A program made the position numbers and the translations under genes. The notes below the pieces were generated by a model that saw only the letters and a list, made by a program, of their open reading frames with translations, searched no databases and was not told where the DNA came from. Shown here in pieces: positions 4,548 through 4,577 of a stretch of DNA of 18,315 nt; the stretch's first letter is position 1; every line of letters begins with the position of its first letter. This stretch comes from Candidatus Thorarchaeota archaeon (GTDB lineage: Archaea; Asgardarchaeota; Thorarchaeia; Thorarchaeales; Thorarchaeaceae). Location of the stretch: contig JAEOTX010000152.1 in NCBI GenBank assembly GCA_016839605.1, positions 1 to 18,315 of the forward strand. The letters are read 5' to 3'.

Positions 4548-4577
4548 TTGCTGCCAAGCCAGGATATCTGGCTCAGA
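4548..4577 (-). other. 30-nt BHB intron in 16S rRNA at E. coli 1531/1532
   Basis: TCTGAGCCAGATATCCTGGCTTGGCAGCAA interrupts GGA|TCACCTCCT. It folds as central helix GCUG/CAGC, bulges GA|U and AA|U, and a 9-bp intron stem CUGAGCCAG/CUGGCUUGG. Confidence 0.88.

Follow-up and report, generated by a model that had tools for sequence, protein, structure and literature searches.

The 16S rRNA gene of the window (the whole stretch of DNA analysed, 18,315 nt) is interrupted, nine bases before its mature 3' end, by 30 nt with the anatomy of a BHB mini-intron. We regard this insert as a genuine sequence feature that is very probably an intron, on the evidence of its sequence, of its fold and of an empty-site allele in the closest relative found for the 3' domain of the gene (G145). 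It is likely, in our view, to be a short hairpin BHB intron, with a two-subunit EndA as the predicted nuclease and RtcB as the predicted ligase. The contig joins two organisms within the 16S gene, and the part of the gene that carries the mini-intron is of the type of another Asgard family (f12) than that of the binned Thorarchaeota genome.

Position and fold of the insert

Rfam identified an archaeal 16S rRNA on the minus strand (RF01959 match 6699..4569, 1323 bits). On this strand, helix 45 and GGA (4580-4578) are followed by the 30 nt (4577..4548) and then by UCACCUCCU (4547-4539). The E. coli number 1531 given to the site is our own count back from A1518/A1519, the dimethyl-adenosines of the GGAA loop, and agrees with the number in the preliminary description. 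The boundary is ambiguous by sequence alone, since a TC repeat allows three possible placements; the 1531 boundary is the only one of these that obeys the rule of a cut after the second bulge base, and it is also the boundary of the Thorarchaeota inserts described below. The insert cannot be represented in the Rfam model, which therefore misplaces the end of the 16S: its last 11 positions were aligned onto intron bases, and the gene call ends 30 nt early. rRNA finders thus mis-end such genes, as the preliminary description had expected, and amplicon surveys are blind to the site because it lies beyond the 1492R primer.

The insert lacks an ORF and, with its 30 nt and its 9-bp hairpin, has the size and form of the short 'HP' introns of 16S genes (less than about 50 nt). 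In a fold with the full helix 45 it extends no existing helix, its position being in the single-stranded tail. The 16S gene as a whole is about 650 nt overlong, and about 616 of these nucleotides form a single insertion near model position 916, a larger intron lying apart from the mini-intron (Table 1). A homologue of this larger intron (72% identity) occupies the same site in G135 (f12); in G145 the intron is absent. Because of its presence, the interrupted 16S gene depends on intron removal.

Table 1. Coordinates of the features discussed in the text (window positions unless a locus is named)
Feature	Position	Strand	Basis or remark
16S rRNA gene, interrupted, hybrid as assembled	4539..6699	-	Rfam and reading of the strand
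Proposed BHB mini-intron, 30 nt, after E. coli A1531	4548..4577	-	Sequence, fold, empty-site allele in G145
Mature 3' exon	4539..4547	-	Anti-Shine-Dalgarno CCUCC at 4544-4540
Exon GCUG, 5' strand of BHB central helix	4580..4583	-	In the mature form, last 4 nt of helix 45 3' strand
5' bulge GAU	4577..4579	-	Predicted cut between 4578 and 4577
Intron hairpin	4554..4576	-	Stem 4576-4568 with 4562-4554 (9 bp), loop AUAUC 4567-4563
Intron CAGC, 3' strand of central helix	4550..4553	-	Pairs with GCUG (4583-4580), 4/4 bp
3' bulge or loop AAU	4547..4549	-	Predicted cut between 4548 and 4547
Helix 45	4580..4603	-	5' strand 4603-4594, loop GGAA 4593-4590, 3' strand 4589-4580
Larger intron, about 616 nt	5144..5754	-	183-aa ORF (5156-5707); about E. 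coli position 970
16S trailer, G/U-rich	4420..4538	-	Strand of the leader-trailer processing stem
Switch interval between the two parents	5792..5851	.	Informative sites Thorarchaeota-type at >=5851, f12-type at <=5792
Trailer copies in G145, L111 (G145:C21)	~5830-5957, 3798-3920, 1465-1572, 630-717		About 2 kb apart, downstream of 16S
Trailer copy in G142, L178 (G142:C312)	1153-1205 of the locus		After a protein gene, no 16S beside it
Inserts at the ~1500 site	L018, L020, L021, L030, L032, L036, L037, L039, L043, L045		Boundaries ambiguous
Detached 16S tails	Metagenome loci L124-L127, L131, L136, L138-L140, L143, L147-L150, L152, L154, L155; L028 (G012:C14)		

RNAfold gave, for positions 4530-4600, a minimum-energy structure composed of the GCUG/CAGC helix, the GAU bulge and the 9-bp stem with its AUAUC loop, which is the same fold (4-bp helix, two 3-nt bulges and 9-bp stem) that the preliminary description had read from the letters. 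All four pairs of the central helix are formed, the bulges being GAU and AAU, and a 4-bp central helix with a 9-bp abutting stem in the same register was obtained in only two of 1,000,000 shuffles of the insert. The outer exon-exon helix, already described as weak, amounts to one base pair; since this single G-C pair closes the AAU side, the motif lacks the strict hBHBh' form and qualifies only as relaxed HBh'. EndA cuts after the second nucleotide of each bulge. Cuts at these places in both bulges would yield GCUGGA joined to UCACCUCC, which is the universal tail. The rejoined tail matches exactly the uninterrupted form in G145 and in most Asgard 16S genes, and the earlier claim that the EndA rule restores the conserved end was therefore correct.

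The exon GCUG is at the same time the end of the 3' strand of helix 45, and the helix 45 and BHB folds are thus mutually exclusive, with the lowest 4 bp of helix 45 in competition with the BHB central helix. When the whole of helix 45 was included, the minimum consisted of an intact helix 45, a separate hairpin and an unpaired CAGC, and the BHB conformer was 3.3 kcal/mol less stable than this fold. According to these models, EndA would have to capture the less stable of two folds of nearly equal energy.

Inserts and empty sites at the 3' ends of Asgard 16S genes

The scan for same-site inserts and the test of stem covariation proposed in the preliminary description both bore fruit, with about 30 distinct inserts in Thorarchaeota. 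An insert of 30-33 nt was found at the same bond in five genomes of the bin's family (G019, G017, G012, G007 and the bin itself, G000), and the tail was uninterrupted in G005, G011, G016, G009, G018 and G024, from the same genus or family. The only 16S gene found in G017 and in G012 carries the 1531 insert. In an exact-pattern scan of 185,579 species genomes, the 1531 site was filled in 10 species labelled Thorarchaeota or uncultured archaeon. In four MAGs labelled Heimdallarchaeota, the same scan revealed an insert of 31 nt after 1527, which is four bases further upstream. The metagenome scan contributed 35 further loci with 20 distinct inserts, all of them Thorarchaeota-type.

The bacterial and Woesearchaeota matches of the scan (five Verrucomicrobiota-type MAGs, one MAG labelled Terriglobales and one Woesearchaeota MAG) were rejected as inserts: these genomes have a normal tail, and its motif recurs behind it in the spacer. 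In the Verrucomicrobiota-type and Terriglobales-labelled MAGs (L033, L040, L042, L044, L046 and L047), the last nine bases of the tail are repeated 25-30 nt downstream, after a short complementary stretch, and this repeat is probably part of the processing stem of those MAGs.

The 30 distinct insert sequences differ from one another and have a common design. In their alignment, 29 rows of which are Thorarchaeota inserts related to one another and one of which is the window insert, the named structure paired in 93.5% of cells, against 31-57% with slid partners, and compensatory changes were found in 9 of the 14 pairs; the observed values were reached by none of 500 shuffles. RNAalifold, unaided, recovered the central helix and the greater part of the inner stem, and differed in the innermost pairs. 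One exon-intron pair of the central helix is A-U in the 29 Thorarchaeota rows and C-G in the window insert, such that exon base 4582 covaries with an intron base (alignment columns 7-41). To judge from the aligned sequences, the central helix of the intron is in each case matched to the host's own helix 45. The AA before the 3' junction is invariant in all 30 inserts.

The window insert shares the site and the design of the Thorarchaeota 1531 inserts, but its hairpin is unrelated to theirs in sequence and its central helix is GCUG/CAGC; it resides in an f12-type 16S and was encountered only once. The GCUG/CAGC form of the insert pattern gave no match in the metagenome contigs, the exact insert type was not present in the other f12 16S ends, and a fuzzy search of G000 and of the fetched loci matched only the window itself. 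The three other f12 16S ends found are empty at 1531 and have mini-introns within the loop of helix 45 or beside it. In G145, the 3' domain is 92% identical to that of the window, the 1531 site is empty and the flanks are collinear. The insert is thus optional among relatives and is therefore most likely a neutral or selfish passenger rather than a regulator.

Inserts with the same core design are found inside helix 45, after 1527 (G028) and after 1519 (G141), and these, if kept, would disrupt the universal helix 45. At the 1519 site, a script found no outer pairs in strict register, and only the core design is common. Other arrangements were also observed in this region. In Thorarchaeota, as well as in one Heimdallarchaeota-labelled MAG, GUCGUAA is separated from CAAGG at about position 1500 by a second insert of about 30 nt (Table 1). 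G135 and G139 have two inserts, flanking the helix 45 loop on both sides, and an insert of about 200 nt is present in the 5' strand of helix 45 in G036. Many of the Thorarchaeota blocks consisting of helix 45, mini-intron and tail have non-rRNA sequence directly upstream and are thus detached 16S tails.

Hybrid contig and precursor processing

The preliminary description placed the insert in the interrupted tail of a 16S gene, and this holds, but the gene is a hybrid of two organisms, a feature that was invisible to its reader. Judging from the sites that distinguish the parents, the contig joins two organisms within the 16S gene and the true host of the insert is not the binned genome. Positions 5851-18315 are from Thorarchaeota, of the bin's own genus, and positions 1-5792 from the other Asgard family (f12, genus g48); between 5792 and 5851, G011 and G145 show no difference. 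The 5' part of the 16S is 96% identical to that of G011, the part after the large intron is 70-76% identical to Thorarchaeota, and the 3' part has its closest match in G145, which belongs to f12 and genus g48. The left 4.5 kb are syntenic with G142 (f12; 76-82%), and no synteny of this segment with the Thorarchaeota 16S locus was found. The ValRS gene (11720-14209) adjoins the 16S as in relatives and shares 91% identity with the same genus; the right part therefore belongs to the bin. Mis-binning of the whole contig was considered and rejected, as only the left third is foreign and the ValRS part fits the bin.

We consider the hybrid most likely to be an assembly chimera, the simplest account being that the assembly crossed from one genome to the other within about 58 nt of conserved sequence, although the Thorarchaeota/f12 16S could be a natural recombinant. 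In either case, the mini-intron belongs, by its flanking sequence, to an f12-type 16S. Since the gene is a hybrid of two classes, 16S-based naming of the bin is unsafe. The practical lesson is that the 16S of a binned genome can be a hybrid of this kind, with naming that is wrong for half of the gene. Two other genes of the contig deserve mention. The Thorarchaeota part includes a tRNA gene with 32 inserted nucleotides at the anticodon loop (8371-8473, plus strand; Rfam tRNA, 54.6 bits). The f12-type part includes a BglII-family restriction endonuclease gene (3360-3851, minus strand; Pfam PF09195, E 3e-30) about 700 nt downstream of the 16S end, and its location near the 16S hints at a mobile or defence island.

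The trailer of the window 16S is about 88% identical to that of G145. The C/A-rich leader of G145 pairs with its own G/U-rich trailer with a ddG of -52 kcal/mol; with the window trailer, the ddG was -41 kcal/mol for the G145 leader and -7 kcal/mol for the window's own leader. No convincing leader-trailer stem or strict BHB was found within the window, and the hybrid nature of the gene accounts for the missing stem, since the G145 leader does pair with the window trailer. The leader-trailer stem is the usual archaeal EndA substrate and leads to circularisation (PMC10351888). Because the trailer is part of a long leader-trailer stem, the 3' exon probably exceeds 100 nt, or belongs to a circle, when splicing would take place, and it would be reduced to nine bases only after a final trimming of the Nob1 type. 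The 3' exon of only about 9-11 nt put forward in the preliminary description is thus a property of the mature RNA and not of the precursor, in which the trailer is built to pair with the leader over about 100 nt.

The trailer, of about 120 nt, is also a repeated element in f12 genomes, with copies in G145 and G142 (Table 1), and this element may mark the borders of swappable gene modules.

Splicing model, alternative explanations and known systems

Two EndA-domain genes were found in each of the four f12 genomes searched, and RtcB was present in all four. For one EndA paralogue of G145 the closest PDB chain was 3p1z_B (E 1e-45); for the other, the closest chains were 5x89_A and 1a79_A, with additional matches to 3iey_B (NEQ261) and 3p1z_A. 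The 3p1z structure is that of the Aeropyrum pernix heterotetramer, and by sequence similarity the f12 pair fits a two-subunit enzyme. The Asgard EndA is reported to be an (alpha-beta)2 enzyme with an L1 loop, and this loop confers cleavage of relaxed motifs (PMC5829648). By analogy, the EndA of the f12 host would be able to cut relaxed motifs, the substrate range being taken only from that paper.

In the process that we favour, the CAGC of the intron would displace the bottom of helix 45 in the precursor and pair with the exon GCUG, and this helix, together with the 9-bp intron hairpin, would offer a relaxed HBh' motif to the splicing endonuclease. [quoted passage not shown] Helix 45 would then close, leaving the anti-Shine-Dalgarno at its universal distance; splicing may precede the methylation of helix 45. 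The intron might, rather than being a passenger, act as a licensing step, with CAGC keeping the base of helix 45 open and the anti-Shine-Dalgarno displaced by 30 nt, but this seems to us very unlikely. If it were true, helix 45 closure, KsgA/Dim1 dimethylation, Nob1 trimming and mRNA docking would all depend on tRNA-splicing enzymes, and the crowding of mini-introns in the last 45 nt of Asgard 16S would reflect selection for a checkpoint.

The 30 nt might instead be retained in mature 16S, as a hairpin expansion between helix 45 and the anti-Shine-Dalgarno. The 3' tail of 16S is single-stranded and on the subunit surface, where an extra hairpin might be tolerated, and the minimum-energy fold with the full helix 45 does consist of helix 45 and an independent hairpin. 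However, retention leaves unexplained the four bases after the stem that are complementary to the end of the host's helix 45 and switch with it, the AA found before the junction in 30/30 inserts and the boundaries exactly at the EndA cut positions. The sister inserts of the same design would, if retained, break a universal helix, and the nearest relative lacks the insert. We consider retention unlikely.

It is slightly easier to imagine, although still rather unlikely, that the intron is real but a fossil, the window copy being a spare or decaying 3' piece of an f12-like 16S that was stitched by the assembler to a Thorarchaeota 5' half. The switch of parent between 5851 and 5792, the poor leader-trailer pairing in the window (ddG -7, compared with -41 for the G145 leader), the location of many Thorarchaeota 1531 inserts in detached 16S tails and the repetition of the trailer element away from any 16S in G145 and G142 are all consistent with such a history. 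However, the f12-type part is not a 150-nt tail: it continues without interruption from a point ahead of the 616-nt intron across the whole 3' domain (482 bits over Rfam positions 963-1478; 92% identity to the G145 16S), and every conserved helix of the 3' domain scores normally. An origin of the insert itself as an assembly artefact appears extremely improbable. The contig is demonstrably hybrid in the same gene and the exact sequence is absent from any second assembly, but assembly does not by itself generate a new 30-nt hairpin in an exact BHB register, as the shuffles illustrate (2/10^6), the sequence on either side of the insert is collinear with G145, and a mis-join would have no source, since neither the bin nor the fetched loci contain any other match to the 30 nt. 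Removal of the insert as a BHB intron is thus the explanation that we retain.

Introns of this kind have been published: short (<50 nt) hairpin 'HP' BHB introns are known in the 16S of Thermoproteales, Desulfurococcales and Caldiarchaeum, and have been catalogued at 13 loci, from 374 to 1391 (Jay & Inskeep 2015, PMC4496867). In the literature we found no 16S intron site beyond 1391 and no paper on Asgard rRNA mini-introns. The suggestion of an undescribed intron site in the preliminary description may therefore be kept for the 1531 site, apparently unreported in that literature, but not for the kind of intron. If spliced, this would be the 3'-most intron site known to us in any 16S gene, and the mRNA-docking tail of the ribosome would be stitched on by tRNA-splicing enzymes. 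Taken with the sites at 1500, 1519 and 1527, it would indicate that, in Asgard archaea, mini-introns spliced by proteins are crowded into those 45 nt of the small-subunit rRNA that are conserved best. These 16S mini-introns would extend the known excess of tRNA introns in Asgard archaea to rRNA, and the insert would provide a compact natural substrate for studies of Asgard EndA specificity.

The window insert resembles the 'HP' introns in its lack of an ORF, its length (about 30-50 nt in this class), its hairpin and BHB core at the exon junctions, its location in a conserved part of the 16S and its patchy distribution among relatives; cutting by the tRNA splicing endonuclease and ligation by RtcB are presumed in both cases. 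It differs from them in its site, after 1531 and at none of the 13 catalogued loci, in its host, which is an Asgard archaeon and not a member of Thermoproteota, in its mature 3' exon of nine bases, in a central helix that borrows the base of helix 45 and in a 3' cut without a closing exon helix. The relaxed HBh' tRNA introns of Thermoproteota and Asgard archaea, which are cut by an (alpha-beta)2 EndA with an L1 loop (PMC5829648; bioRxiv 10.64898/2026.10.13.758758), are similar in having one well-formed bulge-helix side and in needing a broad-specificity two-subunit EndA, which the f12 genomes apparently encode. However, the host RNA is here an rRNA, with no mature tRNA body to aid recognition. 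The BHB motifs of the 16S leader and trailer (PMC10351888; PMC7038931) share with the insert the enzyme, the pre-rRNA and the end of the molecule concerned. Those motifs are formed by the leader with the trailer and give rise to a circular pre-16S, whereas the insert forms its hairpin locally, within the mature sequence, which would be rejoined once the insert is removed.
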